A stretch of DNA of 64,000 bases from an uncultured Eubacteriales bacterium (GTDB taxonomy: Bacteria; Bacillota; Clostridia; RGIG6154), in assembly GCA_964568815.1 (NCBI GenBank), contig CAZMRY010000001.1:14055-78054 (forward strand). Reading direction: 5' to 3'. Position numbers and translations under genes: made by a program. Shown in pieces: positions 6,972 through 39,860 of the stretch. The notes below the pieces were generated by a model. It was not told the DNA's origin, did not search any database, and was given only the letters and a program-made list of their open reading frames with translations. Numbering within the stretch: the stretch's first letter is position 1; every line of letters starts with the position of its first letter.

Positions 6972-7759
6972 CTTGTTTTATCCTCGTTTGCAAAGTCACG
7001 GACTGTACCTGTTGGTCTGTGACTGAAGTTGAGTCTTTTAAGTCCGGCTTCTTTATCAGGCATAAAGTCAACCCACATGTAGTGCATATGTCTATCTCCC
7101 GTCACTTCTGCTCCGTGATTTGAGCCAAGGGGAATATGGATAATCGCGTCACCCTTCATATTATACTTGCCATCGTCAATGATAACTTCCATATCATTTT
7201 CTGCAAAGCTGTAGAAGAACTGGTCAAGCATTGGGTGTGCATGTGGTCTTACTAAATCATAACCATAAGACTCAACACTGCCAATTGTAAATCTTGGTAT
7301 AATTTCATGAGGAATCATCATTCTGCTGATGGTTTTTTCACTCTTGTTAGGATCAATATACTGAATAGATTCCTGATAAGGTACAATAACAGGAAATTCT
7401 GTCTTATATTCCTTTAAGTCCTCAGCATCGCCTTCTTCTTCGTCCCATTGAATTTCAAGAACACGGGTTTCAGCAATTGCTTTAACAACAAGGTCTTTTT
7501 TAGGATCTGATACAAATGTTGTTCTGTCATTAAATTTGTATTCCTTTTCATCTGTTGCAAACACTGCGTTTCCTTCTAAAAGAATTAAAATATGATAATA
7601 TCCAACATTTGCATCAAATGTTACACTGTCTCCCTCTGCAATTTTATGATGAACAGGTCTCGCACCATTGATTTCACCTTTGCAAAGTTCTACTGAATGT
7701 GTTCCTTCTTTTTTTGTATCTACATACTGAAAATTTACTGTGTCTGACATAATTAACAC
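6968..7759 (-). CDS. hypothetical protein, possibly cupin-fold, co-transcribed between the glycyl radical enzyme and the isomerase
   Basis: 263-aa ORF overlapping both neighbours by a few nt in a translational-coupling arrangement. No recognisable catalytic motif. Confidence 0.45.
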   Translation of the reverse strand: MLIMSDTVNFQYVDTKKEGTHSVELCKGEINGARPVHHKIAEGDSVTFDANVGYYHILILLEGNAVFATDEKEYKFNDRTTFVSDPKKDLVVKAIAETRVLEIQWDEEEGDAEDLKEYKTEFPVIVPYQESIQYIDPNKSEKTISRMMIPHEIIPRFTIGSVESYGYDLVRPHAHPMLDQFFYSFAENDMEVIIDDGKYNMKGDAIIHIPLGSNHGAEVTGDRHMHYMWVDFMPDKEAGLKRLNFSHRPTGTVRDFANEDKTR

Positions 7760-20888: not shown

Positions 20889-20917
20889 TTGACAAATCAA
20901 TCTGAATGTGATAGAAT
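20889..20917 (+). promoter_or_regulatory. consensus sigmaA promoter for T-box leader 1
   Basis: TTGACA (20889-20894), a 17-nt spacer, then TAGAAT (20912-20917). Confidence 0.7.
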
Positions 20918-20924
20918 ATCTCCA

Positions 20925-21205
20925 ATTTAAACGCTGAGATGCGGAATAGTACGCAAAACACTTTCGCCTTGAGAGAGGTGCCGGTTGCTGCGAGGCATTG
21001 GGAAAGATTTGCAGAACTCACCGCGGAGCGGTTGCCGTGAACTAACAGTAGGGGCAAACGGGAACTCCCGTTACAGAGTTAAGATGTGTTAGCATCTAAG
21101 GTGCATTCTGAGCGAATGAAGAAGAGTGGTACCGCGGAAACGAAATTATAGCGTTTTCGTCTCTTTGAACCAACAGAGAGATGAAAGCGCTTTTTTGTTG
21201 GTTAT
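20925..21205 (+). promoter_or_regulatory. T-box riboswitch leader
   Basis: Conserved T-box sequence GAGTGGTACCGCGG at 21124-21137. The stem I elements cttGAGAGAGgtgccggttgctgcgaggca are shared with leader 2. An imperfect terminator (gcgttttcgtctctttg...caacagagagatgaaagcgc plus TTTTTT) ends at about 21200. Confidence 0.8.
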
Positions 21206-21239
21206 AGATATTACCTGTTATTTGAAAGGAGTTTTTAAA

Positions 21240-22628
21240 ATGAACAAAATTAACATTACAGACATTACCCTTAAAAAGCTTTCAGCAGAGCGTGAAGTAG
21301 CGCTTCTTTTCCGTGAAAAAACAGCAATTGCTGTTTGCGCTGATAAGCTTGGTGCAGATGCAATAGAGCTTGCTCCTGTGAAAAATCTTCGTGAAGATAC
21401 TATTATTTACAAAACTATTGCTCAAAATGTTGAAAATGCAACCGTTGCCATTCCTGTAGGCTTTAGTGCAGAGGAAGTTGCTGCAGCCTGGGAATGTGTC
21501 AAAGATGCTAAAAAACCTCGTCTTCAGATTGAGGTTCCTGTATCTACAGTTCAGATGGAATATACTTATCACATTAAAGCAGAAAAGATGCTTACCAAAA
21601 TTGGTGAACTTACAAAGTCTGCAAAAGATTTATGCAATGATGTAGAATTTTCTGCCCTTGATGCAACAAGAGCGGACATTGATTTTCTTATCAGTGCTGT
21701 AAAAGAAGCTGAGGCCAATGGTGCAAGCATTGTTACAATCTGCGATGACGCAGGTGCATCTCTCCCCGATTCTATTGCATCATTAGTTGAAAAAGTAAAA
21801 TCAGAAGTAAATATTCCTGTATATGTTCAGGTTTCTGATCGCATCAACATGGGTGTTGCATCAGCTATAGCATCTGTGCAGAAAGGTGCAGACGGTCTTA
21901 AATGTGCAATGGCAGGAAAAGATATTCTTTTAACAGGAGAAATTTCCGATGCAATTAAAGTATGTTTTGCAGAAACAGGTATTGAAACAAACCTCAACAC
22001 CACAAAAATTCACGCAAGCATTGATGAAATGCTTAGCCATATTAACCATGAAGCATACGAAAATGAAAACTCAGTAAGTGAAAAGAAAAAAATTCTTCTT
22101 GATGCTGACAGCACAATCGTTCAGGTTGCACAAGCTGCACAGGTTTTAGGTTACGAGCTTTCAGATTCAGATATTGGAAATGTTCATAAAGCACTTATTC
22201 GGATATGCCAGAAAAAAGATGCTGTCGGAGCAAAAGAACTTGAGGCTTTAATCGCAAGCTCTGCTATGCAGGCTCCTTCAACATATCATTTTGAAAGCTA
22301 TACAACAACAAGCAGTAATCTTACAAGCTCAATGTCACAGGTAACTTTAAAATGCAATGATGAAATTATTTGCGGTGTAAGTGCAGGTGACGGTCCTGTT
22401 GACTCCGCTTTCCGTGCTATCGAACAATGCATAGGACATCACTACGAGCTTGATGATTTCCAGGTTCAGTCTGTAACTGAAGGAAAAGAAGCTTTGGGTT
22501 CTGCAGTTGTAAGACTCAGAAATAATGGTAAGCTTTATTCAGGCAACGGTATTTCAACAGACATCGTTGCAGCAAGCATAAGAGCTTATGTAAACGCTCT
22601 TAACAAAATAGTATTTGAGGAGGCATAA
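21240..22628 (+). CDS. 2-isopropylmalate synthase homologue (LeuA/HMGL-like fold) with substituted catalytic motifs
   Basis: Collinear with LeuA: AAWECVKDAKKPRLQ vs AAWEAVKDAKNPRIH, and LCNDVEFSALDATR vs LCDDVEFSAEDATR. DTTLRDGEQ is replaced by TDITLKKLSAE, and the HxH metal site by QVS. The SD-supported start is 21240 (AAAGGAG+9), whereas the ORF track starts at 21126 inside the T-box terminator. Confidence 0.7.
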   Translation: MNKINITDITLKKLSAEREVALLFREKTAIAVCADKLGADAIELAPVKNLREDTIIYKTIAQNVENATVAIPVGFSAEEVAAAWECVKDAKKPRLQIEVPVSTVQMEYTYHIKAEKMLTKIGELTKSAKDLCNDVEFSALDATRADIDFLISAVKEAEANGASIVTICDDAGASLPDSIASLVEKVKSEVNIPVYVQVSDRINMGVASAIASVQKGADGLKCAMAGKDILLTGEISDAIKVCFAETGIETNLNTTKIHASIDEMLSHINHEAYENENSVSEKKKILLDADSTIVQVAQAAQVLGYELSDSDIGNVHKALIRICQKKDAVGAKELEALIASSAMQAPSTYHFESYTTTSSNLTSSMSQVTLKCNDEIICGVSAGDGPVDSAFRAIEQCIGHHYELDDFQVQSVTEGKEALGSAVVRLRNNGKLYSGNGISTDIVAASIRAYVNALNKIVFEEA

Positions 22629-22629
22629 A

Positions 22630-25089
22630 ATGAAAATTGTATTTTCAACCAAGAATGTAAATCGTGCATCTTTCCTTGATATATGCCGCTATGCTTACGA
22701 TTACGGATTTGAAGGCTTTGAAATACACGATGCAATAAAAGAACGCGGTCAGCATCACGACAGTATTTTGCGTCGTGACCGCACATCAGATGCTAAAAGA
22801 AAGCTTATAAACCGTAAACTTTCAGTTCCTGCACTTCGCATGCCTTATCCTGTTGAAAGTGCGGAAACTACATCAGAAATACTTGTAAAATATGTTGATA
22901 TGGCTGCAAATGCCGGAATCAGCAATATTATAGTGCGTGTAGAAGAAGAAACATCTTTTGATATATTAAACGAAAAGCTTGCAGATGCAGTTAAAGCAGC
23001 TGAAAAATCAGATGTTGGAATTTTATTTGAAACAGTTGGTTTTCTTTCAGACACAGAAAATGTTATAAAAATTATCAACCACTTCTCCTCTGCTGCAATC
23101 GGTGCATCATGGAATGTCAGAGGAACATATTTTGGTGCAGGTGAAACTGCAGAAACAACAATCAAAACACTTGGTGCATACATCAAATATGTCCGCCTTG
23201 GTGATATGAAAGACGGGAAAACAGTTTTAATCGGCGAAGGCGAACTTCCTGTTGAAAACTTAATCAATGCCCTTTCTTCACTTAACTTTGACGGATTTAT
23301 CTGTGCTGCATGGAATGAAGATATAAATGATGCGGATATTGTTTTAACACACTTTGCAAACTACATTTCTTCTCTTAAAAGAGAAAAGAAAACATATGAC
23401 CGTGCATATTACAACCGTTCAAAAACAGGTACTTATGTATGGAAAAAATATGATGTAATCGATGCAACTTTCTCTGATGTTCTTGACACTATGGTAGAGA
23501 ATTATCCTGACCAGTATGCATTTAAGTATCCTACCCTTGATTACACAAGAACCTATGAACAATTCCGTCGTGATGTTGACGAATGTGCTGCTGCACTCAT
23601 ATCACTCGGTGTAAAAGCAGGCGACCATGTTGCTGTATGGGCAACTAATGTTCCTGAATGGTACATTACTTTCTGGGCTACTACAAAAATCGGTGCTGTT
23701 CTTGTTACAGTAAATACTGCATACAAAATCCATGAAATAGAATATCTGTTAAAACAGTCAGACACTCATACTCTTGTTATGATTGAATACTGTAAGGATA
23801 TTAACTACAAAGAAATAATTCAGGAGCTCTGTCCTGAACTTGAAAATCTTACACCAGGTGAACCTCTCTATTCAAAAAATCTCCCATTCCTTCGCAATGT
23901 TGTAACAGCAGGCTTTTCAATGAATGGATGTCTCACATGGGAGCAGATGCTTTCGCGTTCTGCTTTAGTACCTCGTGAAGAAGTAAGAAGAAGAGCTTCA
24001 CTTGTTAAGCCTGACGATGTTTGCAATATGCAGTACACATCAGGTACAACAGGCTTTCCTAAAGGCGTTATGCTTACACATCGCAATATTGTAAATAACG
24101 GTAAAACTATCGGCGACAGAATGGATTTATCTACAGCTGACCGCATGATGATTCAGGTTCCTATGTTCCACTGTTTCGGCATGGTACTTTCTATGACCTC
24201 TATGATGACTCACGGCGGAACTCTCTGCCCTATCCCATATTTTTCACCGAAATCATCGCTCGCTTGCGTGAATGACGAAAAAATCACCTGTTTTAACGGT
24301 GTTCCTACTATGTTTATTGCTATGTTTAATCATCCTGATTTTGCAAAAACTGATTTCTCATATATGCGCACAGGTATTATGGCAGGTGCAAACTGCCCTG
24401 CTGACTTAATGCGTCGTGCTGCAGATGAAATGAATATGAAAGAAATTATATCTGTTTACGGTCAGACAGAGGCATCACCAGGATGCACAATGGGTGAAGT
24501 AAATGAAGACATCGACCATCGTGTTGAAACTGTTGGCAGTCCGTTTCCTGGTGTTGAATGTAAAGTTATTGACCCTGAAACAGGCGAAGAGCTTCCTGAT
24601 GGAGAGAGCGGTGAGTTTGTAGCCCGTGGCTTTAACATAATGAAAGGCTATTACAAAATGCCTGAAGCAACAGCACAGGCGATTGATGCTGACGGTTGGC
24701 TTCATTCAGGTGATATCTGTTGCAGAACTCCTGATGGTTATTACAAAGTAACAGGCAGACTTAAAGATATGATTATCCGTGGCGGTGAAAACCTCTATCC
24801 TCGTGAAATTGAAGAATTTTATCTGACAAATCCTAAGGTAAGAGATGTTCAGGTAGTTGGTGTACCTGATGAAAAATATGGTGAAGAATGTTGTGCATGG
24901 ATTATTCTTCACAAGGGTGAAACTGCTGACGAAAACGAAATGAAAGAATTTGGCAACGCATCAATTGCAAGACACAAGGTTCCTAAGTATTTCTTATTCG
25001 TTAAGGAATTCCCTATGAACGCTGCAGGTAAAATTTTAAAATATAAAATGCGTGACGAATCAACAGAAATTTTAGGTCTTAAAAAATAA
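22630..25089 (+). CDS. fusion protein: xylose-isomerase-like TIM-barrel domain plus AMP-dependent acyl-CoA synthetase/ligase (ANL superfamily)
   Basis: The N-terminal ~270 aa look like a sugar-phosphate isomerase/epimerase TIM barrel. The C-terminal part carries the AMP-binding motif YTSGTTGFPKGVMLTHRN and core motifs GQTE and GWLHSGD. The start ATG at 22630 sits after GGAGG and directly follows the upstream TAA at 22626-22628. Confidence 0.8.
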   Translation: MKIVFSTKNVNRASFLDICRYAYDYGFEGFEIHDAIKERGQHHDSILRRDRTSDAKRKLINRKLSVPALRMPYPVESAETTSEILVKYVDMAANAGISNIIVRVEEETSFDILNEKLADAVKAAEKSDVGILFETVGFLSDTENVIKIINHFSSAAIGASWNVRGTYFGAGETAETTIKTLGAYIKYVRLGDMKDGKTVLIGEGELPVENLINALSSLNFDGFICAAWNEDINDADIVLTHFANYISSLKREKKTYDRAYYNRSKTGTYVWKKYDVIDATFSDVLDTMVENYPDQYAFKYPTLDYTRTYEQFRRDVDECAAALISLGVKAGDHVAVWATNVPEWYITFWATTKIGAVLVTVNTAYKIHEIEYLLKQSDTHTLVMIEYCKDINYKEIIQELCPELENLTPGEPLYSKNLPFLRNVVTAGFSMNGCLTWEQMLSRSALVPREEVRRRASLVKPDDVCNMQYTSGTTGFPKGVMLTHRNIVNNGKTIGDRMDLSTADRMMIQVPMFHCFGMVLSMTSMMTHGGTLCPIPYFSPKSSLACVNDEKITCFNGVPTMFIAMFNHPDFAKTDFSYMRTGIMAGANCPADLMRRAADEMNMKEIISVYGQTEASPGCTMGEVNEDIDHRVETVGSPFPGVECKVIDPETGEELPDGESGEFVARGFNIMKGYYKMPEATAQAIDADGWLHSGDICCRTPDGYYKVTGRLKDMIIRGGENLYPREIEEFYLTNPKVRDVQVVGVPDEKYGEECCAWIILHKGETADENEMKEFGNASIARHKVPKYFLFVKEFPMNAAGKILKYKMRDESTEILGLKK

Positions 25090-25101
25090 TTAAAAAAAGT
25101 A

Positions 25102-25130
25102 TTGACAATTCAAAAGAACCGTTGTATAAT
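25102..25130 (+). promoter_or_regulatory. consensus sigmaA promoter for T-box leader 2
   Basis: TTGACA (25102-25107), a 17-nt spacer, then TATAAT (25125-25130). Confidence 0.7.
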
Positions 25131-25134
25131 AATC

Positions 25135-25420
25135 ACAAATTTGAATATCACAAAGAACGACTATGACGAAGACGGTCGGATTGTGAAGCCCTGAGAGAGT
25201 TGCCGGTTGGTGCGAGGCAAAGGTGAATCTTTCCAATGACCTATCACTTCTGAGTCGGAGGACCGAAAGGCAAAGCTGAGTAGACTCCTTCCGTAATGCT
25301 GCGTAAAAGCAAAGGACTTGATAGAGTCCGTAAAGTGACGGAATTTTTTCCGTAATTTGAGTGGTACCGCGGGTATAATAACTCGTCTCAAAAGAAATCT
25401 TTTTGAGACGGGTTTTTTGT
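25135..25420 (+). promoter_or_regulatory. T-box riboswitch leader
   Basis: TTTGAGTGGTACCGCGGG T-box sequence at about 25357-25374. The terminator cgtctcaaaag(aaatc)cttttgagacg plus GGTTTTTT spans 25384-25418. Stem I shares ccctGAGAGAGttgccggttggtgcgaggca with leader 1. Confidence 0.8.
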
Positions 25421-25463
25421 TTTATTCAAACCGTATCAACGGAAATGAAAGGAGACAAAAGAA

Positions 25464-27761
25464 ATGGATTACAATTTAAAAGAAGTTGCAGGAAGAATCA
25501 GAGACCTCAGAGAAGCAAAAGGCTATACACCTGATGAGCTTGCTAAGCTTACTGGCGTAACTGTTGAGGATTACAAAATTCTTGAAGAAGGCGAAACTGA
25601 TTTCAGCTTCACTTTTATCTACAAGTGTGCAAAAGCTTGTGGTGTTGAAGTAGTTGATATTTTAGAGGGAACAAGTTCAACTCTTACATCATTTGCTATC
25701 ACAAGAAAAGGCGAAGGTCTTAAAATTATCAAAAAGCAAGGTGTTGTTTACAACAACTTAGCTCCTAAATTCAAAGATAAGCTTGCTGAACCTTTCCTTG
25801 TTAAATTCCCCTACCTTGCAGAAGAACAGAACGCTCCTATAAAGCTTAATTCTCATAACGGACAGGAATTTGATGTTATCGTTAAAGGATCACTTAAGGT
25901 TCAGGTTGGAAACCATGTAGATATACTCAACGAAGGCGATTCTATTTTCTATAACAGTATCATCCCCCACGGTATGATTGCAGTTAGTGAAGGAGGATGT
26001 GAATTCCACGCTGTTGTACTCAACCCACAGGATGGTCAGGTAAGTGAAGAATATCCTGAAGCTCCGTTTATTGCTGCAAAAGCTGCAGTTGTTCAGAACA
26101 AAACTGAAACAGTTGCAGATAAATTTATTGAATCATCCTATGATGAAAATGGTGTATTTAACGGAATTACATTCAAAAATGAAGATAAATTCAACTTTGC
26201 ATTCGACTGTGTTGATGCAATCGCTGAAAAGAATCCTGATAAACTTGCAATGATGTGGGTCGCAAATGACAAAACTGACCGAAAGTTTACTTTCGGCGAT
26301 ATGAAAAAATATTCTGCAAAAACTGCAAACTATTTTGAATCACTTGGTATCAAAAAAGGCGATACAGTAATGCTCGTTTTAAAGAGACATTATCAGTTCT
26401 GGTTCTGTATGCTTGCACTTCATAAAATCGGTGCTATTGCAATCCCTGCAACAAACCAGCTTGTTGAACACGATTTCACATACAGATATAAGGCTGCAAA
26501 GGTTAAAGCTATAGTTTGCACAGCGGATGGTGATGTTTCAACAGAAGCAGAAAAGGCTGCATCTGAGTTCCCTGGAATGATAAAAGTTCTTGTTGGCGGA
26601 GAAAAAGAAGGCTGGAACAACTTCAATGTTGAAATGGAAAGATTCAGCACACACTACTTCCGTAATGAAAACACTCCTTGCGGTGACGACCCGATGCTTA
26701 TGCTCTTTACTTCAGGAACAACAGGATATCCTCGTATTGCAACACATTCTTATAAATATGCATTAGGACATTATCCTACAGCTAAACACTGGCATAATGT
26801 TAACCCTGACGGACTTCACTTTACAATTTCAGACACAGGCTGGGGTAAAGCTCTCTGGGGCAAACTCTATGGACAATGGCTTTGCGAAGCAGCACAATTC
26901 ACATACGACTTTGACCGTTTCCATTCAGAAGATATTTTGCCAATGTTTGCAAAATACAATATCACAACATTCTGTGCTCCACCGACAATGTACAGATTCT
27001 TTATCAAAGAAGATTTATCACAATATGACCTTTCATCAATTGAGTATGCAACAACAGCAGGTGAAGCACTTAATCCTGAAGTATTTAACCAGTTCAAAAA
27101 AGCTACAGGGCTTACAATTATGGAAGGCTTTGGACAGACAGAAACAACACTTTCTATCGCAAACTTTGTTGGTACTACACCAAAAATCGGTTCAATGGGC
27201 AGACCAAGTCCACTTTATGATGTAGTAGTTTTAGATCCTGACGGAAAGGAATGTAAAACAGGTGATGCAGGTGAAATCTGTATCCGTACAAAAGAAGGTA
27301 CACCTTGCGGTCTCTTTATCGGCTATTACTTAGACGATGAGAAAACAAAGGAAGTATGGCACGACGGATACTACCACACAGGCGACCAGGCTACAATGGA
27401 CGAAGACGGATATCTCTGGTATGTGGGAAGAATTGATGATGTTATCAAATCATCAGGCTACCGTATCGGACCTTTTGAAATTGAAAGTGTTATTATGGAA
27501 CTTCCTTATGTTCTTGAATGTGCAATCACTCCTGTTCCAGATGAAGTTCGCGGACAGATTGTAAAGGCCACAATCGTACTCACAAAGGGTAATGAAGGCA
27601 CAGACGAGCTTAAAAAGGAAATTCAGGAATATGTTAAGACACATACAGCACCTTACAAATACCCAAGAATTGTTGAATTCGTTGACGAACTTCCAAAAAC
27701 AATCAGCGGTAAAGTAAGAAGAGTTGAAATCCGTAACAAAGACCTTGAGAAAAACAAATAA
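25464..27761 (+). CDS. fusion protein: XRE-type HTH plus cupin sensor domain (PuuR-like) fused to AMP-dependent acyl-CoA synthetase/ligase
   Basis: N-terminal HTH (LREAKGYTPDELAKLTGVTVEDYKILEEGE) followed by a cupin (GDSIFYNSIIPHGM). The ANL domain then carries FTSGTTGYPR, GQTE, YYHTGDQ and a C-terminal PKTISGKVRR. It is a continuous 765-aa ORF. Confidence 0.8.
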   Translation: MDYNLKEVAGRIRDLREAKGYTPDELAKLTGVTVEDYKILEEGETDFSFTFIYKCAKACGVEVVDILEGTSSTLTSFAITRKGEGLKIIKKQGVVYNNLAPKFKDKLAEPFLVKFPYLAEEQNAPIKLNSHNGQEFDVIVKGSLKVQVGNHVDILNEGDSIFYNSIIPHGMIAVSEGGCEFHAVVLNPQDGQVSEEYPEAPFIAAKAAVVQNKTETVADKFIESSYDENGVFNGITFKNEDKFNFAFDCVDAIAEKNPDKLAMMWVANDKTDRKFTFGDMKKYSAKTANYFESLGIKKGDTVMLVLKRHYQFWFCMLALHKIGAIAIPATNQLVEHDFTYRYKAAKVKAIVCTADGDVSTEAEKAASEFPGMIKVLVGGEKEGWNNFNVEMERFSTHYFRNENTPCGDDPMLMLFTSGTTGYPRIATHSYKYALGHYPTAKHWHNVNPDGLHFTISDTGWGKALWGKLYGQWLCEAAQFTYDFDRFHSEDILPMFAKYNITTFCAPPTMYRFFIKEDLSQYDLSSIEYATTAGEALNPEVFNQFKKATGLTIMEGFGQTETTLSIANFVGTTPKIGSMGRPSPLYDVVVLDPDGKECKTGDAGEICIRTKEGTPCGLFIGYYLDDEKTKEVWHDGYYHTGDQATMDEDGYLWYVGRIDDVIKSSGYRIGPFEIESVIMELPYVLECAITPVPDEVRGQIVKATIVLTKGNEGTDELKKEIQEYVKTHTAPYKYPRIVEFVDELPKTISGKVRRVEIRNKDLEKNK

Positions 27762-27769
27762 ACAATTTA

Positions 27770-27795
27770 AACCCGAGCAAACGCTCGGGTTTAAT
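27770..27795 (+). terminator. rho-independent terminator after the ligase operon
   Basis: aacccgagc(aaac)gctcgggtt then taatgtt. Confidence 0.5.
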
Positions 27796-28029
27796 GTTAT
27801 AACAAAAGGCACACGCAAATTTGCTATTATGAAACATTAGCTGCAAACTCACTTCTTTTCATTTTTCCACTCCTTTCTAAAAGGGTTTTTATTCAGCAAT
27901 TACAAGAGACTCATTGAGCACCTTGCCACAATAGTTACACTTATTGCAATCCTTATCACACGATGTTGTATGTATCCAGAGATCTCCCGGTATTTTAGAA
28001 CTGTCGATTACATACGGTGCAAAAACTGA

Positions 28030-29545: not shown

Positions 29546-32071
29546 ATGAAAGCAAAAGAAGCTAAAGCTCGTTTGAAAATAAACAAACTACTCGAAGAAA
29601 CTGGTTGGCGTTTCTTTGACGATGAAAATGGAGCCGCAAATATTCAGGTTGAGCCGAATGTAAAAATAACAAAAACACAAATAGATTCATTAGGTGAAGA
29701 TTTTAATACAGTAAAAAACGGATTTGTAGATTTCTTGTTACTTGATGATAACGGAAAACCATTCGTAGTTCTTGAAGCTAAATCAGAAGATAAAGACCCA
29801 CTTGTAGGTAAAGAACAAGCAAGAGAATATGCAAAATCGTTGTATGTTAAATATGTAATTTTATCAAATGGAAATCAGCATTATTTTTGGAATATTACAA
29901 AAGGAAATCCTCAGATTATAACTGCTTTCCCGAGTTATGAGAGCTTAAAAGAAAGTAAGGCATTTACTGCCGATTCATCAAAATTGTATAAAGAAGAAAT
30001 CAGGAGCGACTATATAGCGGTCATTAAAAATCCTAATTATGAAGAAGCTCCCGAATATAAGAACGAAGAAACGAGACAGAAATTTATATTTGATAGCGGA
30101 TTGCGTTTTTTGAGACCCTATCAGGTTAATGCTTTGAAGAAATTACAAGCTTCTGTAAAAGACGGAAATCAACGATTCTTATTTGAAATGGCAACAGGCA
30201 CAGGAAAAACACTTACATCTGCTGCGGTTATCAGATTATTTTTAAGAAGCGGTAATGCAAATAGGGTTTTGTTTCTTGTTGATAGAATCGAACTTGAAAA
30301 TCAGGCAAAAAAGAATTTTCAAAACTATCTTTCCCCTGACTATCAAACAGTAATTTTTAAAGAGAATAAGGATGATTGGCGTAAGGCTGAAATTGTTGTT
30401 TCTACTGTGCAGACGCTTGTGGCAAACAATAAATATAAAAGATTTTTCAAGCCTACTGATTTTTCTTTGATTATAGCAGATGAAAGCCATCGCTCAATTA
30501 ACGGAAACAGCAGAGCAGTATTTGAATATTTCTTAGGATATAAGTTAGGACTTACAGCTACTCCGAAGGACTATATAAAAAATGTAGATATTGAAAAAAT
30601 GAAAAGTACAGACCCACGAGCTTGGGAAAAAAGACAGCTTCTTGACAGTTACAAAACTTTTGGATGTGAAAGCGGAGAGCCGACATTCAGATATTCGTTG
30701 CTTGACGGTGTTCGTGACGGTTATTTAATCAATCCTACAGTTGTTGATGCAAGAACTGAAATTACGACCAAACTGTTGGCAGAAGAAGGTTATGCGTTTA
30801 TAACAACAGGTGATGAGCAAGACGAAGAACAGGAAGAAACATTTTTCGCAAGAGATTTTGAACGTAAATTCTTTTCTGAAACTACCAATAAGGTTTTTGT
30901 AAAAACATTTATGGATAACGCATTAAGAGACCCAATAACAGGCGAAATCGGTAAGGGTATTATTTTCTGCGTAAGTCGCAGACACGCTGCAAAAATCACA
31001 CAGTTACTCAATGAATATGCAGATAAAATGTTTCCGGGCAAGTATTGTTCGGACTTTGCTATGCAGATAACATCAGATGTTATGAATGCACAGACTTATA
31101 CAACTAATTTCCAAAATAACAATTTAAGCGGTACTACTGTATTTTTGGATGGTTACAAATCGTCAAAAACAAGAATATGCGTAACAGTCGGTATGATGAC
31201 AACCGGATATGATTGTGAAGATTTGCTCAATATAGGCTTGTTAAGACCAATATTTTCGCCTACCGATTTTATTCAGATAAAAGGCAGGGGTACAAGAAAA
31301 GCAACTTTTGTTTATAGAGAAAAAATCAACGGAATTATTGAAGAACGCAAAGAAGAAAAAACTACCTTTAAGCTCTTTGATTTCTTTGGTAACTGTGAAT
31401 ATTTTGAAGAAAAATATAACTATGATGAAGTCATAAAGCTTCCGAGAACGCATACATCAGGTAATGGGACAGAGCTTCCAACACAATCTGAAGATTATGA
31501 GAATTTTAACCCTGACCCATTGGCTTCTATGACGGAAACAGCGATTGGGATTGAAGGTATGAAGATTGACAGAATGTTCTTCGATAAATTTGAAGAAACT
31601 GTCAAGGATGACCCGATTGCAAAGGAACAGTATGAGCAAGGCAATTATCAGGCTGTTATCAGCTATATAGATGAAAACATAATGAATAAGCCTAATGAAT
31701 ATTATACTTGGGACAAGCTGCGCAGAGCGATTGGAAGCGACAGACGAATCACTGCAAGAGAAATTCTTGATAAGATATTTGGTGTTTTGCCATTCTTTAA
31801 AAGTAAGAAACAGCTTGTTGATGATGAATTTGAGTCATTTATGCTTACAAGCAAAGTTCCGCAGGAAAAATATTGGGATATAAAGCATTTCTTTGAAACA
31901 TACATAACAGACAAAGATGTAAGACGGGCGATTGAGGACGGGACTTACCAGCTTTTGGGTACAGAAATCAGCACATATACAATGTCCGATTTGAAAAAGC
32001 TCGGTAAGGACTCAATGTTGCACATCGTAGATTATGTTAATGACAATGTGAATGTTTCAAGATTTATGTAG
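29546..32071 (+). CDS. hsdR: Type I restriction enzyme R subunit-like protein (PD-(D/E)xK nuclease N-domain plus SF2 DEAH helicase)
   Basis: N-terminal HsdR_N-type nuclease motif (VDFLLLDDNGKPFVVLEAK), Walker A MATGTGKTLT, DESH box IIADESHRS, and motif VI QIKGRGTR. At 841 aa it is shorter than canonical HsdR. Confidence 0.7.
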   Translation: MKAKEAKARLKINKLLEETGWRFFDDENGAANIQVEPNVKITKTQIDSLGEDFNTVKNGFVDFLLLDDNGKPFVVLEAKSEDKDPLVGKEQAREYAKSLYVKYVILSNGNQHYFWNITKGNPQIITAFPSYESLKESKAFTADSSKLYKEEIRSDYIAVIKNPNYEEAPEYKNEETRQKFIFDSGLRFLRPYQVNALKKLQASVKDGNQRFLFEMATGTGKTLTSAAVIRLFLRSGNANRVLFLVDRIELENQAKKNFQNYLSPDYQTVIFKENKDDWRKAEIVVSTVQTLVANNKYKRFFKPTDFSLIIADESHRSINGNSRAVFEYFLGYKLGLTATPKDYIKNVDIEKMKSTDPRAWEKRQLLDSYKTFGCESGEPTFRYSLLDGVRDGYLINPTVVDARTEITTKLLAEEGYAFITTGDEQDEEQEETFFARDFERKFFSETTNKVFVKTFMDNALRDPITGEIGKGIIFCVSRRHAAKITQLLNEYADKMFPGKYCSDFAMQITSDVMNAQTYTTNFQNNNLSGTTVFLDGYKSSKTRICVTVGMMTTGYDCEDLLNIGLLRPIFSPTDFIQIKGRGTRKATFVYREKINGIIEERKEEKTTFKLFDFFGNCEYFEEKYNYDEVIKLPRTHTSGNGTELPTQSEDYENFNPDPLASMTETAIGIEGMKIDRMFFDKFEETVKDDPIAKEQYEQGNYQAVISYIDENIMNKPNEYYTWDKLRRAIGSDRRITAREILDKIFGVLPFFKSKKQLVDDEFESFMLTSKVPQEKYWDIKHFFETYITDKDVRRAIEDGTYQLLGTEISTYTMSDLKKLGKDSMLHIVDYVNDNVNVSRFM

Positions 32072-32080
32072 GAGGAAGCT

Positions 32081-34600
32081 ATGTTAAAGTTTGATGTAAA
32101 AAGAAAAATCAATACCTTGCGGGATATTTTGGTTGGCAAAGTACCTGACCCGAAGGCACAGGTTGAACAAATTACCATTGCAATGATTTATAAATTTATG
32201 GATGATATGGATATTGAAGCAATGGAATTTGGTGGTGAACGTGTATTCTTTAAAGGCGAATACGAAAAATATGCGTGGTCAAATCTTATGAGTCCTGAAA
32301 ATAGCGGACAGAAAAGAGCAATGATTTATGCTGAGGGTATTGAAAAAATGGTAATGAATCAGAATATACCCCAGCTATTCAGAGATATATTCAGAGGTGC
32401 ATATATACCATACAGAGACCCCGAAACTCTTAATATGTTTTTAAAAGAAATCAGCGATTTTTCTTATGATAACAGCGAGGATTTGGGGAATGCCTTTGAG
32501 TATTTGCTTTTAATAATGGGTAGTCAGGGCGATGCAGGGCAGTTCAGAACACCGAGACACATTATTGATATGATGGTTGAAATTGTTGACCCGAAGAAAA
32601 ATGATACAATTCTTGATCCGGCGTGCGGAACAGCAGGATTTTTGATAAGTGCTTATAAGCATATCAAAAATACAAATGTGGACGAGAACGGAAATTCAAC
32701 CCTGACACCTGATGACAGAAGACGATTAACCGATAATTTTGCAGGATATGATATTTCTCCCGATATGGTTAGATTATCAAGAGTTAATATGTATTTACAC
32801 AATTTTACTAAACCTAACATAAGTGAATACGATACTCTTACAAGCGAGGAAAAATGGGATGATAATTATGATGTGATTCTTGCAAATCCTCCGTTTATGA
32901 CACCAAAAGGCGGTATTATGCCTCATAGACGATATATCACAGAAGCAAAACGCTCAGAAGTGTTATTTGTAGATTATATTGTTCAGCATTTGAATACAAA
33001 CGGAAAGGCTGCCATTATTGTTCCTGAAGGTATAGTTTTTCAGTCACAGTCTGCATATAAAAAGATTCGCCAAATACTTGTAGATGATGATTTTCTTTAT
33101 GGTGTTATTTCCTTGCCTGCCGGAGTTTTTAACCCTTATAGTGGTGTAAAAACAAGCATTTTGTTAATTGACAAAACACTAGCAAAGCAGAAAGATGATA
33201 TTCTTTTTATTAAAATGAATAATGATGGATTTGATTTAGGGGCACAACGCAGAGAAATAAAGAAAAATGATATTCCTGACATTGTTAATATCGTTAAGGC
33301 ATATCAAGAGAGTGAAGATGTCAGCGACAATCCGATTGTTACTTTGGCTGATAAGAAAAGGATTTGCGAGCAGGATTATATCCTTGTTGGAGAACGATAT
33401 AAACAAGATAGAATGATTGATAGCAAGTGGGAAATGGTCAAATTAGGCGACTTGTGTGATTTGCAAAATGGTTATGCATTTAAATCTTCTGATTATATTG
33501 ATTGCTCAAACACTTTAAATTTTAGAATGAGTAATATTAGACCGGATGGAAACGTGGATTTAGAATATGCAAAAAAACATCTTCCAAATGAGTATGCTGA
33601 AAAATTTCCAGAATATATCTTGTCATCAGGGGATGTTGTAATAGCGATGACCGATATGGCTAATGACCCCCAAATATTAGGAGTTCCAACTATTATCCCA
33701 GAACATTATGGTACATTACTTTTGAATCAGCGTGTAGGTAAATTCATAAATATCAATTGTGAAAAGTTGTATGTGCCATTTTTAAAACATGTACTTAATT
33801 GTGATACGGTGAAAAATTATTATAAATCACTCAGTGGCGGAGGATTGCAAATTAATTTAAGCAAAAAAGACTTATTACAACTACAAATTCCTGTTCCTCC
33901 ACTATCAATTCAGAGAGAAATTGTTGATGAAATAGAAAGTTATCAAAAAATTATTGACGGTGCAAGGCAAATTGTGAATAATTATAAGCCAACTATCAAG
34001 ATTAACCCTGAATGGGAAAATGTTGAAATTGGAAGTATGTATGATATTAGTTATGGTGTTACCATTTCTATTCCGCAAAATGAAGATGAAAACGGAATCA
34101 AAATTATATCTACTGCTGAGGTTGGTTTAGATGGACAGCTTGATTTGTCAAATATAAGAAAAGTACATTACGATAAAAAGTATGAAAAATTTGTTTTAGA
34201 GCCTGATACATTGCTATTTAATTGGAGAAATGCTCCAAAACACGTTGGTAAAACAGCTTGGTTTTTACAGGAGGACGATAAATATATAAGTGCCTCATTC
34301 TTGTTATCGTTGAAAAATAAAAATCCTAAATGTTACGATAATGGGTTTGTGTGGTGTGCTTTAAACAACCTTCGTGAAACCGGTTATTTTATGAGAAATG
34401 CAAGACAGGCTGTAAATCAAACGAATTTCAACGGGGACCAGCTTTCAAAAACAAAAATAGCTATACCAAATATAGAGGAACAACAGCATATTATGAAAGG
34501 CATATATGAGGAAATGGTTATTGTTGAAAAAAATAAGAGGTTGATTGAAATTTTTGAACAAAAAATAAAGGATAAAATTTCAGAAGTTTGGGGTGATTAA
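32081..34600 (+). CDS. fused Type I R-M methyltransferase-specificity protein (HsdM N-6 adenine MTase domain plus two HsdS-like target-recognition domains)
   Basis: SAM-binding motif I LDPACGTAGFL and motif IV VILANPPF. C-terminal tandem TRD-like segments (KLGDLCDLQNGYAFKS... and VEIGSMYDISYGVTIS...) each show HsdS conserved spacing. 839 aa. Confidence 0.75.
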   Translation: MLKFDVKRKINTLRDILVGKVPDPKAQVEQITIAMIYKFMDDMDIEAMEFGGERVFFKGEYEKYAWSNLMSPENSGQKRAMIYAEGIEKMVMNQNIPQLFRDIFRGAYIPYRDPETLNMFLKEISDFSYDNSEDLGNAFEYLLLIMGSQGDAGQFRTPRHIIDMMVEIVDPKKNDTILDPACGTAGFLISAYKHIKNTNVDENGNSTLTPDDRRRLTDNFAGYDISPDMVRLSRVNMYLHNFTKPNISEYDTLTSEEKWDDNYDVILANPPFMTPKGGIMPHRRYITEAKRSEVLFVDYIVQHLNTNGKAAIIVPEGIVFQSQSAYKKIRQILVDDDFLYGVISLPAGVFNPYSGVKTSILLIDKTLAKQKDDILFIKMNNDGFDLGAQRREIKKNDIPDIVNIVKAYQESEDVSDNPIVTLADKKRICEQDYILVGERYKQDRMIDSKWEMVKLGDLCDLQNGYAFKSSDYIDCSNTLNFRMSNIRPDGNVDLEYAKKHLPNEYAEKFPEYILSSGDVVIAMTDMANDPQILGVPTIIPEHYGTLLLNQRVGKFININCEKLYVPFLKHVLNCDTVKNYYKSLSGGGLQINLSKKDLLQLQIPVPPLSIQREIVDEIESYQKIIDGARQIVNNYKPTIKINPEWENVEIGSMYDISYGVTISIPQNEDENGIKIISTAEVGLDGQLDLSNIRKVHYDKKYEKFVLEPDTLLFNWRNAPKHVGKTAWFLQEDDKYISASFLLSLKNKNPKCYDNGFVWCALNNLRETGYFMRNARQAVNQTNFNGDQLSKTKIAIPNIEEQQHIMKGIYEEMVIVEKNKRLIEIFEQKIKDKISEVWGD

Positions 34601-35789
34601 TTTGGGAGCTGATGAGATCCGCAAAAATCTTGGCGAAGCATTATCTATATTTGCAAAAACAGTAGAAAATGTAACAAATTCAATGGATGTAGAAGCAACA
34701 GTAGCGTACAGAGATTTTGTAGATGATTTGATGTCATATTTTCCAATGACCAAAGTAAATACTCAAGCAGGTACTTATGACCAATACCTACAAGATTTAA
34801 GAAAAACTGTTGTCGATAATTATGATAAAAATAATTATCAGGTAGCATATTTTTATGCCCACTTGATTTTTATGAGTTATATTTATTACTCGGTTGAATT
34901 AGCTTATAGATTTTTGCCGCAAAAGACAAAAGACCAATACGATATGATAAATGCTTATAGTGGAAATAATAAACCTAATATCGCAGACACTCCCAATGTT
35001 TATTCGTTCAGTAAAATACCCGAAAAAGAAATTTTTAAAGTGTTTTATGCTATTGGCATGGATGTGCAATACATTCAACAGCTTTCATCGTATGTTAAGG
35101 AACGTGATGACTATGCACATGCTACGGGAAAAGGAAATATAGATGATGATGCTTTTAAAACTAACATTAAAACTGTAAAAAGAAATATGGGTACAGTTCA
35201 TAAATTGTTTCAACCATACATCAAAGATAAATATATTGCTTTTTTAATAGATAAGTGTGAATTGTCTCACGAAACAGTTGAAATGGCAATTTCTGATTAT
35301 ATTGTTGATGAAAATTTTTCATATCAGGATATTGATTACCTATGTAATTTAGGAATTAGCAATATAAGAAACGAAAACGATATATTTAAAAGTAAATATA
35401 GTTTGGTAAGAAAAGTTCATTGTGCTTTTATTGAACATTGCATAGAAACTTATGGTATTTCCGAGCCAACCAATTTAGGTAATCTAAGAAACGATACATA
35501 TTTATATTTTAAATACAAAGACAATGCAGAGAAATACATTGAAAGAGAACTCGGAATAAATGGCTACGAATGTGTTAAAAACGGCGGAGAGTTCCCATTG
35601 TATGAGTGTCCTGAATGTGGCGAGGAGCAGTTGGCTCACAATGTAGAAAACGGCAAATTCCATTGTTTTCATTGTGATGAGGATTACACTTCTGAAACAT
35701 TGACATTTTGTTCTCGTTGCGGAGCATTGACAGGAAAAAATGAAATGGATATATGTAAAAACTGTATTGAGGATATGGTGGAAGAATAA
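34593..35789 (+). CDS. hypothetical protein with C-terminal tandem Zn-ribbons, translationally coupled to the R-M methyltransferase gene
   Basis: The start overlaps the hsdMS stop by 8 nt. The C-terminus reads YECPECGEEQLAHNVENGKFHCFHCDEDYTSETLTFCSRCGALTGKNEMDICKNCIE, four CxxC pairs. There is no recognisable catalytic motif in 398 aa. Confidence 0.5.
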   Translation: MINLGADEIRKNLGEALSIFAKTVENVTNSMDVEATVAYRDFVDDLMSYFPMTKVNTQAGTYDQYLQDLRKTVVDNYDKNNYQVAYFYAHLIFMSYIYYSVELAYRFLPQKTKDQYDMINAYSGNNKPNIADTPNVYSFSKIPEKEIFKVFYAIGMDVQYIQQLSSYVKERDDYAHATGKGNIDDDAFKTNIKTVKRNMGTVHKLFQPYIKDKYIAFLIDKCELSHETVEMAISDYIVDENFSYQDIDYLCNLGISNIRNENDIFKSKYSLVRKVHCAFIEHCIETYGISEPTNLGNLRNDTYLYFKYKDNAEKYIERELGINGYECVKNGGEFPLYECPECGEEQLAHNVENGKFHCFHCDEDYTSETLTFCSRCGALTGKNEMDICKNCIEDMVEE

Positions 35790-37548: not shown

Positions 37549-39174
37549 ATGATTTATGTAGCGGCATATTGCAGAGTTTCAACGGACAAGGACGACCAAG
37601 CCAACAGCTTTGAAAGTCAAAAATCGTATTTTGAGGAGTACATAAAACGAAATCCCGATTGGGAGTTATACGAAATTTACGCAGATGAGGGCTTGTCAGG
37701 CACAAACACCAAAAAGCGTGCTGCCTTTAATAAAATGATTGCAGACGCACATTTGGGTAAATTCAACCTAATACTTACAAAGGAAGTAAGCAGATTTGCA
37801 AGAAATACAGTTGATACTTTGCAATACACAAGGGAGCTGAAAGCACTTAATATCAGTGTTTATTTTGCACTTGATAATATTGATACCCTTGCACCTGACG
37901 GAGAACTTAGACTAACCATCATGGCATCACTTGCTCAGGAAGAAAGCCGAAAGACCTCTGAGCGTGTAAAATGGGGACAAAAAAGACAAATGGAAAAAGG
38001 TGTGGTATTCGGTCGTGATATGCTCGGATATGATGTGAGAAACGGCGTTTTGCATATCAACGAAAACGGTGCGGAAATTGTAAGGCTTATTTACCACAAA
38101 TTTGTATATGAGAAAAAAGGCACATACACTATTGCAAGAGAATTGAGAGAAGCGGGTTATAAAACCATAACAGGCAATGCAATATGGTCAAATACTGTTA
38201 TTTTGAAAGTGTTGCGTAATGAAAAGTATTGCGGTGATTTAACACAAAAGAAAACCTATACACCCGATTATCTTTCGCATAAAAAGAAATATAATCACGG
38301 AGAAGAAGAATTTGTAACTTTGACAGACCATCACGAGCCTATCGTTTCAAGAGAGACTTGGGATATGGCACAGCTTGAGCTTGACAGACGTTCTCCTGAT
38401 GATTCAATCAAGTTAAGGCACAGTAACCGTTACCCATTGTCGGGCAAAATCCAATGCGGAGTATGCGGAAACCGATTTGTTTCAAGAACTAAAAAAAGAA
38501 AAGACGGAAGCAGATACAAAGCGTGGAGATGCTGTGAAGCAACACAGCACGGATTGCCCAAGATTGACAAAGCCGAAAATCATATCGGTTGCTCGGTTAA
38601 TTCACAAATTCGTGATGAATATTTTATGCTTGTCATTCAAAAGGTTATAGAAAGCCTGAATGTAAATAAAAAAGCAGTTTTGGACGGTGTTTTAAGTGTA
38701 TTAAAAACTGTATTTTCCACGAGTAAAAATTCTCCTGAAGATACAGACGGTATAAAAAAGAAAATAGAAAATCTTACATCAAAAACTAAGCGTCTTTTGG
38801 ATTTGTATTTGAGTGAGGATATAACAAAAGAAGAATATCGCACAAAAAAAGAAAACTGCGAAAATGAAATTTCGCAGTTAAATGAAAAAATGAAAGCTAT
38901 CCAAAAAGAAACACATTATATGTATGACAGTAATAATGCAATAACTGAAATCAGGGAATATCTTTCAGATATACTTTATGCAAAAAAACAGGACGAAATA
39001 TTTTATAAAAACATAATTGACAAGATTGTAGTTTTTGACAGAGAGCATTTAGATGTTTATTTAAATTTGCTCCCGCACAGATGGAAAACGGTGTTAAATT
39101 CAGCGTTGAGAGCTGATGACCTGTGTGGGAGCAATAAGCCCACGATTTACCTATATCGGTTAAGACTCCCTTAG
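37549..39174 (+). CDS. large serine recombinase (resolvase/invertase N-domain, recombinase domain, zinc ribbon, coiled-coil)
   Basis: MIYVAAYCRVSTDKDDQ carries the catalytic Ser in an RVS context. A CGVCGNRF...WRCC zinc ribbon and a C-terminal coiled-coil complete the 541 aa. SD GGAAAGGAG. The 3' end overlaps the att core and runs antisense into the catalase 5' segment. Confidence 0.9.
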   Translation: MIYVAAYCRVSTDKDDQANSFESQKSYFEEYIKRNPDWELYEIYADEGLSGTNTKKRAAFNKMIADAHLGKFNLILTKEVSRFARNTVDTLQYTRELKALNISVYFALDNIDTLAPDGELRLTIMASLAQEESRKTSERVKWGQKRQMEKGVVFGRDMLGYDVRNGVLHINENGAEIVRLIYHKFVYEKKGTYTIARELREAGYKTITGNAIWSNTVILKVLRNEKYCGDLTQKKTYTPDYLSHKKKYNHGEEEFVTLTDHHEPIVSRETWDMAQLELDRRSPDDSIKLRHSNRYPLSGKIQCGVCGNRFVSRTKKRKDGSRYKAWRCCEATQHGLPKIDKAENHIGCSVNSQIRDEYFMLVIQKVIESLNVNKKAVLDGVLSVLKTVFSTSKNSPEDTDGIKKKIENLTSKTKRLLDLYLSEDITKEEYRTKKENCENEISQLNEKMKAIQKETHYMYDSNNAITEIREYLSDILYAKKQDEIFYKNIIDKIVVFDREHLDVYLNLLPHRWKTVLNSALRADDLCGSNKPTIYLYRLRLP

Positions 39175-39833: not shown

Positions 39834-39860
39834 AGAGGAGCATTTCCGCTCCTCTGTTTT
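39834..39860. terminator. bidirectional rho-independent terminator
   Basis: agaggagc(atttcc)gctcctct is an 8-bp perfect stem with a T-run on the plus strand and an A-run upstream. It abuts the giant gene's stop codon. Confidence 0.65.

Follow-up and report, generated by a model that had tools for sequence, protein, structure and literature searches.

The locus considered here raises the question of why transcriptional switches that sense a shortage of charged tRNA should stand ahead of genes for acyl-CoA ligases. It lies in a stretch of 64,000 nucleotides from an uncultured Eubacteriales bacterium (GenBank assembly GCA_964568815.1, contig CAZMRY010000001.1, positions 14,055 to 78,054 of the forward strand), which was analysed at its full length and is called the window below. 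Two adjacent operons of the window begin with a T-box leader: the first encodes a catalytically dead homologue of 2-isopropylmalate synthase (LeuA) and a fusion of a triosephosphate isomerase (TIM)-type barrel with an acyl-CoA ligase (ligase 1), and the second encodes a fusion of a helix-turn-helix (HTH)-cupin module with an acyl-CoA ligase (ligase 2). Known T-boxes of Firmicutes, such as those of Bacillus subtilis tyrS and glyQS and the ilv-leu leader, control aminoacyl-tRNA synthetases, canonical ilv/leu genes or transporters, whereas the targets here are AMP-forming acyl-CoA ligases, joined in relatives by a 2-oxoacid:ferredoxin oxidoreductase (VOR) and the transaminase IlvE. The answer that we favour, and hold to be probable, is that the operons are two amino-acid-specific modules for the assimilation of branched short-chain fatty acids, each induced through its T-box by the uncharged cognate tRNA. 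The evidence lies in the T-boxes and their specifiers, in the promoter, terminator and antiterminator anatomy, in the domains of the encoded proteins and the loss of catalytic residues from the LeuA homologue, and in the match of specifier to gene and the synteny with VOR and IlvE among relatives; the substrates of the ligases and the way in which the flux runs are inferred.

Two T-box leaders and their specifier codons

A cmscan search of the whole window against Rfam at the gathering threshold returned only two matches, both to the T-box family (RF00230), both on the plus strand and both covering the full model (positions 1–219 of 219): leader 1 at 20927–21167 (124.1 bits, E = 4.8e-27) and leader 2 at 25154–25393 (93.4 bits against a gathering score of 93, E = 3.9e-19). 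Leader 1 contains GAGAGAGGTGCCGGTTGCTGCGAGGCA and AGAGTGGTACCGCGG, and leader 2 contains GAGAGAGTTGCCGGTTGGTGCGAGGCA and TGAGTGGTACCGCGG. No tRNA gene was found in the window. The leaders share with other Firmicutes T-boxes a stem I with K-turn, specifier loop, AGAGA bulge and distal loop, the UGGUACC bulge and a competing terminator.

The specifier codons were read from the Rfam alignment. On the 3′ side of the specifier loop, leader 1 is laid out as GAA-CUC-A-CCGC-G-GAGC, with CCGC as the lower-stem strand and GAGC belonging to the K-turn, and leader 2 as GACCU-AUC-A-CUUC-U-GAGU; the corresponding layout of the B. subtilis glyQS leader is GAA-GGC-A-CUUC-GAGC. By the layout of characterised T-boxes, the specifier is therefore CUC (Leu) in leader 1 (21017–21019, plus strand, followed by A21020) and AUC (Ile) in leader 2 (25243–25245, plus strand, followed by A25246), which are also the usual specifiers for these two amino acids in Firmicutes T-boxes. 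As an independent check of the register, a stem-I covariance model was built and 118 leaders were aligned to it, taken from the window and from 80 related genome loci. In the lower helix of stem I, at the base of the specifier loop, 99.8% of cells are paired and each of the four pairs shows compensatory changes, which fixes the register of the specifier. Pairing over stem I as a whole amounts to 89.3% of cells; shuffles reach 63.1%, and sliding the partners gives 34–41%. Of the 20 pairs, 19 change on both sides. These covariation figures are somewhat inflated, the alignment having been fitted to the model. A preliminary description of this DNA, made from the letters alone, had supposed that the ligases salvage volatile fatty acids for amino-acid synthesis and that the specifier codons would name the amino acids; the reading of Leu and Ile favours that hypothesis.

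Downstream of stem I, the UGGUACC antiterminator bulge is found at 21127–21133 in leader 1 and at 25362–25368 in leader 2 (both plus strand), and once the 3′ arm of the terminator is withheld, antiterminators with this 7-nucleotide bulge form at −12.7 kcal/mol (leader 1) and −9.4 kcal/mol (leader 2). The intrinsic terminator of leader 1 occupies 21150–21197 of the plus strand (hairpin 21150–21191) and has a stem of 18 pairs with a T tract behind it (−30.9 kcal/mol, z −4.6); that of leader 2 occupies 25380–25420 of the same strand (hairpin 25380–25414) and is likewise followed by a T tract (−21.8 kcal/mol, z −4.1). In both leaders the 5′ arm of the terminator overlaps the 3′ strand of the antiterminator, which makes the folds mutually exclusive, and the terminator is the more stable by 12–18 kcal/mol. 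A weaker antiterminator that needs stabilisation by tRNA is the arrangement expected of a transcriptional T-box, and a response of these leaders to tRNA is accordingly a prediction from their folds.

Each leader is preceded by a promoter of near-consensus or consensus quality. That of operon 1 (20889–20917, plus strand) reads TTGACA-17-TAGAAT, an 11/12 match, with an extended −10 TG and an A-rich tract upstream, and that of operon 2 (25102–25130, plus strand) reads TTGACA-17-TATAAT, a 12/12 match. A consensus scan of 8.5 kb returned 23 promoter-like sites; as this count is no higher than in shuffles, only quality and placement are informative, and no site besides the two named here reaches 11/12. 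The TTGACA of promoter 1 and its upstream A-rich tract are conserved across 60 orthologous Leu leaders, and promoter 2 across 31 orthologous Ile leaders. The two T-box leaders, with the strings quoted for them, both promoters and the intrinsic terminators of the leaders had all been pointed out in the preliminary description, and each is borne out here. No terminator was found between the stop codon of ligase 1 and promoter 2 (25089–25102), and read-through from the Leu operon would therefore enter, and be gated by, the Ile T-box leader. A palindromic, terminator-like hairpin directly after the stop codon of ligase 2 (27767–27794) marks the end of operon 2.

The dead LeuA homologue and the two ligases

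The first gene of operon 1 (21240–22628, plus strand) encodes a protein of 462 residues with the two-domain layout of LeuA, that is, an HMGL-like barrel and a LeuA_dimer regulatory domain (PF08502, E = 1.3e-32, profile positions 4–130 of 131). Unlike LeuA, it lacks the catalytic and metal-binding residues, all of which have been replaced (TLRDGEQ by TLKKLSAE; EFSCED by EFSALD, with Glu to Leu; DTVG by DDAG; HCHND by QVSDR), and it fails every LeuA cut-off of NCBIfam, the best model giving 237 bits against a cut-off of 532. The replacements are conserved in 77 orthologues, and distant relatives are dead as well. Mean column conservation across the 77 orthologues is 0.67 in the barrel and 0.81 in the regulatory domain, which is the most conserved part of the protein and keeps the GDGPVD and C-terminal DIVAASIRAYVNALNKI-type motifs that it shares with LeuA. 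A further difference from LeuA is the invariable position of the gene immediately upstream of a CoA ligase gene, the start codon of which is one base past the dead-LeuA stop codon; this one-base gap suggests translational coupling. With its leucine-binding-type regulatory domain, the dead LeuA may be a leucine-sensing regulatory partner of ligase 1, possibly acting through the degenerate TIM barrel.

Ligase 1 (22630–25089, plus strand, 819 residues; Pfam AP_endonuc_2, AMP-binding and AMP-binding_C) consists of a xylose-isomerase-like TIM barrel (approximately residues 1–250) fused to an intact acyl-CoA ligase of the ANL family. The TIM domain matches AP_endonuc_2 with an E-value of 5.1e-12, and its sequence finds only marginal matches in the PDB (E ~0.4). 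An AlphaFold2 (AF2) model of the domain was used for fold class only and not for the active site; its top Foldseek matches are ketose 3-epimerase-type barrels (UlaE, 3cqj; YcjR, 6wn6), at template modelling (TM) scores of ~0.68–0.70 for a model with a predicted local distance difference test (pLDDT) value of 61. From strand position and an alignment with 4kw2, and without a reliable superposition, the E-D-H-E metal-ligand positions of such barrels read E134-N162-R189-E230, N162 and R189 being invariant. The domain is probably not a metal enzyme, because the Asp and His ligand positions are occupied by N162 and R189. It is also faster-evolving than the ligase domain to which it is fused (conservation of 0.72 vs. 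0.92).

Ligase 2 (25464–27761, plus strand, 765 residues) carries HTH_3, Cupin_2, AMP-binding and AMP-binding_C domains. Pfam gives the AMP-binding and AMP-binding_C regions of the ligases E-values of 1e-96 and 6.6e-58, and both ligases keep the ANL core motifs TSGTTGxP(K/R), GQTE, (H/Y)(S/T)GD and GR-x-(K/D)D as well as the C-terminal catalytic Lys, ligase 2 having R for K at the end of the A3 motif; with these motifs intact, both are predicted to be active. The preliminary description had called the LeuA homologue catalytically dead and had named both fusions, and residues, bit scores and Pfam domains agree with it on each point.

The ligase domain of ligase 2 aligns end to end, over 521 residues, with the Methanosarcina acetivorans enzyme MacsMa (3etc_A; E = 6.6e-204, 682 bits), and its best NCBIfam model is MbcS. 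2-Methylbutyrate is the preferred substrate of MacsMa (PMC10455477), and Staphylococcus aureus MbcS is selective for 2-methylbutyrate and isobutyrate and uses isovalerate poorly (PMC10026030). The poor use of isovalerate by MbcS fits the presence of a separate type of ligase for Leu. Ligase 2 differs from both enzymes in its fused N-terminal HTH_3 and Cupin_2 module of ~200 residues and in the control of its gene by an Ile or Val T-box, and from MbcS also in the role proposed for it, which is amino-acid synthesis and not the supply of lipid primers. The solved protein nearest to the HTH-cupin module is 1y9q, an HTH_3-cupin regulator (E = 1e-4), and in some relatives HTH-cupin is a separate adjacent gene. 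The interval from the −10 hexamer to stem I of leader 2 contains a conserved element, AAATTTGAATATCACAAA (25137–25154, plus strand). It is present in most Ile leaders, Val leaders have GAATAT, and nothing comparable is found in Leu leaders. Particular to the leaders of ligase-2 genes, AAATTTGAATATCACAAA may serve the fused HTH domain as an operator or else act as a 5′ element of the RNA.

Specifiers and gene classes in related loci

If the specifier names the product of the pathway, it should follow the type of ligase from genome to genome, and 160 related loci were compared, of which 80 are genome loci and 80 a second, independent set from metagenomes. The genome loci come from a scan of GTDB species representatives in which at least 593 genomes have a relative of ligase 1; the 80 analysed all belong to metagenome-assembled genomes (MAGs) of uncultured Clostridia from ruminant, other herbivore and human guts, with Ructibacterium, Ca. 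Egerieisoma, Acutalibacteraceae, Christensenellaceae and Oscillospiraceae among the record names. The pair of dead LeuA and TIM::ligase 1 is found in all 80, except for a few in which the contig breaks off a short way upstream of the ligase-1 gene.

Of the operons and genes with intact DNA upstream, 63 of 73 for dead LeuA and 47 of 51 for HTH-cupin have a T-box ahead of them. The specifiers of the dead-LeuA/ligase-1 operons of the genome loci are CUC (61 leaders), CUG (two) and CCC (two), and those of the ligase-2 genes AUC (33) and GUA (17). Many genomes have two adjacent ligase-2 paralogues, each with its own T-box, one AUC and the other GUA. A neighbour-joining tree sets the GUA-linked ligases, as a clade, apart from all AUC-linked ones, and identity between the two clades is 0.59, compared with ~0.70 within them. 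That one clade has Ile and the other Val specifiers supports indirectly a preference of these ligases for 2-methylbutyrate or isobutyrate. The metagenome set repeats this correspondence between specifier and gene, with 33 T-boxes (18 AUC, ten GUA, four CUC and one CUG). In one locus (L062, 11135–12571), a 478-residue protein with ACT and metallo-beta-lactamase-fold domains is encoded between the Ile and Val ligase-2 units.

A fourth specifier is associated with a fourth ligase. In L015 (2102–4177) and L008 (2054–4154), a PaaK-type phenylacetate-CoA ligase (TIGR02155, 533 bits) and an ACT-pair protein follow a UUC (Phe) T-box beside the Leu module, and in L005 (2391–4151) a PaaK-type ligase follows Amidohydro_2 and IlvE genes, without a T-box of its own. 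By specifier and sequence, the four amino acids are seen to map onto four putative ligase types or clades, Ile and Val sharing one family and Leu having another, as the biochemistry of MbcS predicts.

The remaining steps of a route from acid to amino acid are encoded beside these ligases in many relatives. Recurrent neighbours in the genome loci are Amidohydro_2 (29 loci), IlvE (17 loci) and VOR, the alpha subunit of which passes the NCBIfam cut-off for VorB (541 bits vs. 399), just as IlvE passes its own cut-offs. Six genome loci (L031, L034, L037, L038, L043, and L057) have a single cluster of dead LeuA, ligase 1, IlvE, a P-loop NTPase, VOR, a separate HTH-cupin gene and ligase 2. The metagenome loci were obtained by scanning contigs for linked VorB, which gave the 80 further loci that were mapped; relatives of this linked VorB, some of them with the ligase-2 operon around them, are present on human-gut metagenome contigs. 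The typical metagenome unit consists of an AUC or GUA T-box, HTH-cupin::ligase 2, the P-loop NTPase, a 70-residue delta subunit with two [4Fe-4S] clusters, VorB alpha, the beta and gamma subunits and IlvE, to which Amidohydro_2 is sometimes added, and the neighbouring unit consists of a CUC or CUG T-box, dead LeuA and TIM::ligase 1. From this synteny, one T-box transcript in those organisms therefore encodes the conversion of acid to acyl-CoA, 2-oxo acid and amino acid.

Two of these neighbours are less readily placed. The Amidohydro_2 protein (PF04909, ~266 residues), encoded directly after TIM::ligase 1 or beside IlvE (for example L063, 8462–9292; L017, 8489–9292; L005, 421–1221), matched no NCBIfam model, and its gene is absent from the window. 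The gene of the P-loop NTPase (~225 residues, with a weak ParA/NUBPL match) always has that of the VOR delta subunit on one side and that of ligase 2 or IlvE on the other (for example L038, 9552–10241; L086, 4090–4767), and the protein may be an Fe-S maturation factor for VOR.

The six loci with the single cluster have no T-box, even at E ≤ 1 in Rfam searches; a match to SQ2397 in the leader of L038, seen at this threshold, was rejected as chance-level. Their leaders (in L038, 4339–4575) consist instead of a TTGACA/TATACT promoter, a short open reading frame (ORF) and a GC-rich terminator with a T tract. The leader-peptide ORF, MNMQSFFTANILLLIAIIILAITKPDKNSAVCRVFK (MNMQSFFTANILLLIAIIILAITK...), is conserved, and 10 of 12 consecutive codons in it specify Ile or Leu. 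The region folds well beyond shuffles (z −5.9), with the control codons paired to downstream sequence, and from these features the T-box appears to have given way to a leader-peptide attenuator in the six loci. In promoter, short ORF with a run of Ile and Leu codons and terminator, it resembles the attenuators of branched-chain amino-acid operons in E. coli (ilv/leu) and in S. aureus, the ilv-leu attenuator of which is leucine-rich (PMC5794164); unlike these, it controls the salvage cluster and not ilv/leu genes, and it is absent from the window. Two unrelated sensors of charged-tRNA shortage are thus placed on the same set of genes, which argues strongly that the set serves to make branched-chain amino acids.

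Readings of the modules and their significance

On the reading that we favour, the CUC codon of leader 1 would pair with tRNA-Leu, and the uncharged tRNA would stabilise the antiterminator and allow transcription of the dead LeuA and TIM::ligase 1, which would most likely convert isovalerate, with ATP and CoA, to isovaleryl-CoA. The AUC codon of leader 2 would likewise pair with tRNA-Ile and allow transcription of HTH-cupin::ligase 2, which would most likely make 2-methylbutyryl-CoA. A ferredoxin-dependent oxidoreductase of the VorB type would then reductively carboxylate the acyl-CoAs to 4-methyl-2-oxopentanoate and 3-methyl-2-oxopentanoate, from which IlvE would form Leu and Ile, respectively, by transamination. 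The salvage hypothesis of the preliminary description is strongly supported by the specifiers, by their tracking of gene class, by the MacsMa/MbcS match, by the VOR/IlvE synteny and by the attenuators, its substrates being assigned from sequence. Other parts of that description require amendment. A phenylacetate module, which it had included, exists in relatives, with a UUC T-box and a PaaK-type ligase, and does not exist in this window; the host belongs to a clade of uncultured hindgut and rumen Clostridia MAGs and is not a named Ruminococcus, a genus that it had cited as an example; and its contrast between these ligases and "biosynthetic genes" is misleading, as the genes would be biosynthetic ones of an alternative route.

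Several observations weigh against this reading. VOR, IlvE and the amidohydrolase are all absent from the window, so that for this genome the downstream steps have to be assumed to be encoded elsewhere, with the ligase modules separated from the shared enzymes. Leader 2 scores barely above the gathering score of RF00230, orthologous leaders reaching 104.7 bits. The Leu-type leaders of Ructibacterium L005 (4300–4410) and L027 (2586–2695) have CCC instead of CUC, and the PaaK leader of L010 (2775–2886, minus strand) has UGC instead of UUC, each odd specifier being a single-base change to the codon of another amino acid. TIM::ligase fusions are rare in a search of representatives at the 50% identity level, and the distant fusions P0122 and P0126 (42–46% identity) have plain promoters and neither T-box nor dead LeuA, on contigs that start just upstream, and neither strengthen nor widen the association; the arrangement is therefore specific to this clade. 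Sequence searches of NCBIfam and the PDB found no close characterised relative of ligase 1: among NCBIfam models a generic "fatty acid CoA ligase family" scores best (673 bits against a cut-off of 832), and its best PDB relatives are feruloyl-, fatty-acyl- and malonyl-CoA ligases that match the C-terminal half only. Ligase 2 reaches 453 bits with the MbcS model, the equivalog cut-off of which is 850, and may be subject to a ligand-dependent control added by its HTH-cupin module, for which DNA binding is putative. The pLDDT of 61 for the TIM domain comes from a shallow alignment of near-identical sequences.

The absence of VOR and IlvE from the window also favours an explanation in which the ligases supply branched acyl-CoA primers for membrane fatty acids, and in which control by T-boxes reflects the disappearance, under Leu or Ile shortage, of primers derived from amino acids. 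This is exactly the role of MbcS (PMC10026030), the best NCBIfam match of ligase 2, and since the acyl-CoA is a branch point, both uses could coexist. Priming has no need, however, of the VOR (delta, alpha, beta and gamma subunits) and IlvE that are encoded in the same T-box operon in relatives, and neither FabH nor any other fatty-acid-synthesis gene is among the recurrent neighbouring gene families. Separate switches for Leu, Ile, Val and Phe fit a demand for amino acids, phenylacetate being no lipid primer, and the attenuator rich in Ile and Leu codons governs the full cluster in the six loci. We regard lipid priming as an improbable account of these operons.

It is similarly doubtful that the ligases act on other carboxylates related to Leu and Ile, such as 2-hydroxy or 2-oxo acids or N-acyl amino acids, with the TIM domain, the dead LeuA and Amidohydro_2 as enzymes of an unrecognised salvage route. 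The lack of a characterised close relative of ligase 1, the Amidohydro_2 gene that follows ligase 1 in 29 loci and the invariant residues kept by the TIM domain would all suit such a route. Yet two of those invariant residues, N162 and R189, stand at metal-ligand positions (E134-N162-R189-E230), the active site of LeuA is erased in all orthologues, the distant ones included, evolution has been faster in the two accessory barrels (conservation of 0.67 and 0.72) than in the ligase domain (0.92), and the presence of VOR is best fitted by carboxylation of an acyl-CoA. The reverse direction, in which these would be fermentative operons for the catabolism of branched-chain amino acids, with VOR and IlvE working oxidatively, as VOR and transaminases do in many amino-acid-fermenting gut anaerobes, and the ligases incidental or recycling acids, was rejected as very improbable on regulatory logic and enzyme type: T-boxes and leader-peptide attenuators induce under amino-acid scarcity, which runs counter to the logic of catabolism, ANL ligases of the AMP-forming kind push the reaction from acid to acyl-CoA and do not serve to release acid with a gain of ATP, and no phosphotransacylase, kinase or ADP-forming synthetase is among the recurrent neighbouring gene families.

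The assimilation of branched acids into amino acids, which thus remains the favoured reading, may be extended to three stacked layers of sensing, a proposal that we put forward tentatively and would not expect to hold in full. The T-box would be the first; the dead LeuA, a pseudoenzyme left with no more than its leucine-binding regulatory domain and docked on the degenerate TIM barrel of ligase 1, would bring about direct feedback inhibition of isovalerate activation by leucine; and ligase 2 would be both an adenylating enzyme and a repressor, in the manner of BirA, binding AAATTTGAATATCACAAA in its own leader according to its occupancy by ligand or acyl-adenylate.

The rest of the window bears on other subjects. 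Directly downstream of the ligase modules is a restriction-modification cluster (29546–35789) that encodes a helicase/nuclease R subunit and a fused N6 methylase and specificity protein and includes a 398-residue ORF without a Pfam match. The region from 37549 to 64000 resembles a prophage or mobile region, with a large serine recombinase (37549–39174), a 3246-residue polyvalent protein with MuF_C, LPD23, LPD3 and PBECR3 domains (39859–49599, minus strand) and a P22-like portal (62786–63889, minus strand). Upstream, a gene for a GH127 beta-L-arabinofuranosidase-like protein (730–2733, minus strand) and one for a glycyl-radical enzyme (PFL-like and Gly_radical domains; 7753–9972, minus strand) were assigned to a long minus-strand cluster (~2.9–14.9 kb).

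The physiology to which the modules would belong has long been described. Labelling experiments since the 1960s have shown that rumen and hindgut anaerobes make Leu, Ile, Val and Phe from isovalerate, 2-methylbutyrate, isobutyrate and phenylacetate, respectively; reductive carboxylation of branched and aryl volatile fatty acids (VFAs) to amino acids by rumen bacteria is reportedly the subject of the classical labelling work of Allison, Bryant and Robinson. An aryl-acid route to amino acids operates in Methanococcus, and branched-chain VFAs are used as feed additives that stimulate fibre digestion. We know of no firm bacterial assignment of this route at the level of genes or regulation, and none was found in the literature searched. 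Rumen methanogens convert 2-methylbutyrate to Ile and isovalerate to Leu (PMC10658910). The pathway proposed here shares with classical reductive carboxylation its habitat and its sequence of steps: activation of the acid to an acyl-CoA, formation of a 2-oxo acid by a ferredoxin-dependent oxidoreductase and conversion of that to an amino acid. Earlier work was physiological, whereas here each acid has its own ligase gene and its own tRNA-sensing switch. The term "CoA" is absent from the text of two surveys of T-box regulons (PMC2494555, PMC3766115), and the arrangement is not described in the literature covered on T-boxes or reductive carboxylation together with the acids, ligases or VOR, a coverage outside which Vitreschak et al. 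(2008) falls. The riboswitch class and the chemistry of the pathway are known; what appears to be new are acid-activation modules labelled by amino acid, a pseudoenzyme derived from LeuA and the HTH-cupin::ligase fusion.

For the organisms concerned, the arrangement amounts to one acid, one ligase and one switch, in which the specifier codon in effect labels the ligase with the amino acid that is its eventual product. The T-box regulon is thereby extended to CoA ligases and ferredoxin oxidoreductases, and the dead LeuA becomes a candidate leucine-sensing pseudoenzyme derived from LeuA. Through these loci the ligases become linked to a particular VOR and IlvE, which makes the pathway directly testable and allows it to be searched for in metagenomes. 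If the proposal of three sensing layers is true, the modules, VOR and IlvE would jointly account, at the level of genes, for the classical requirement of gut and rumen anaerobes for branched-chain VFAs and for the assimilation of these acids.

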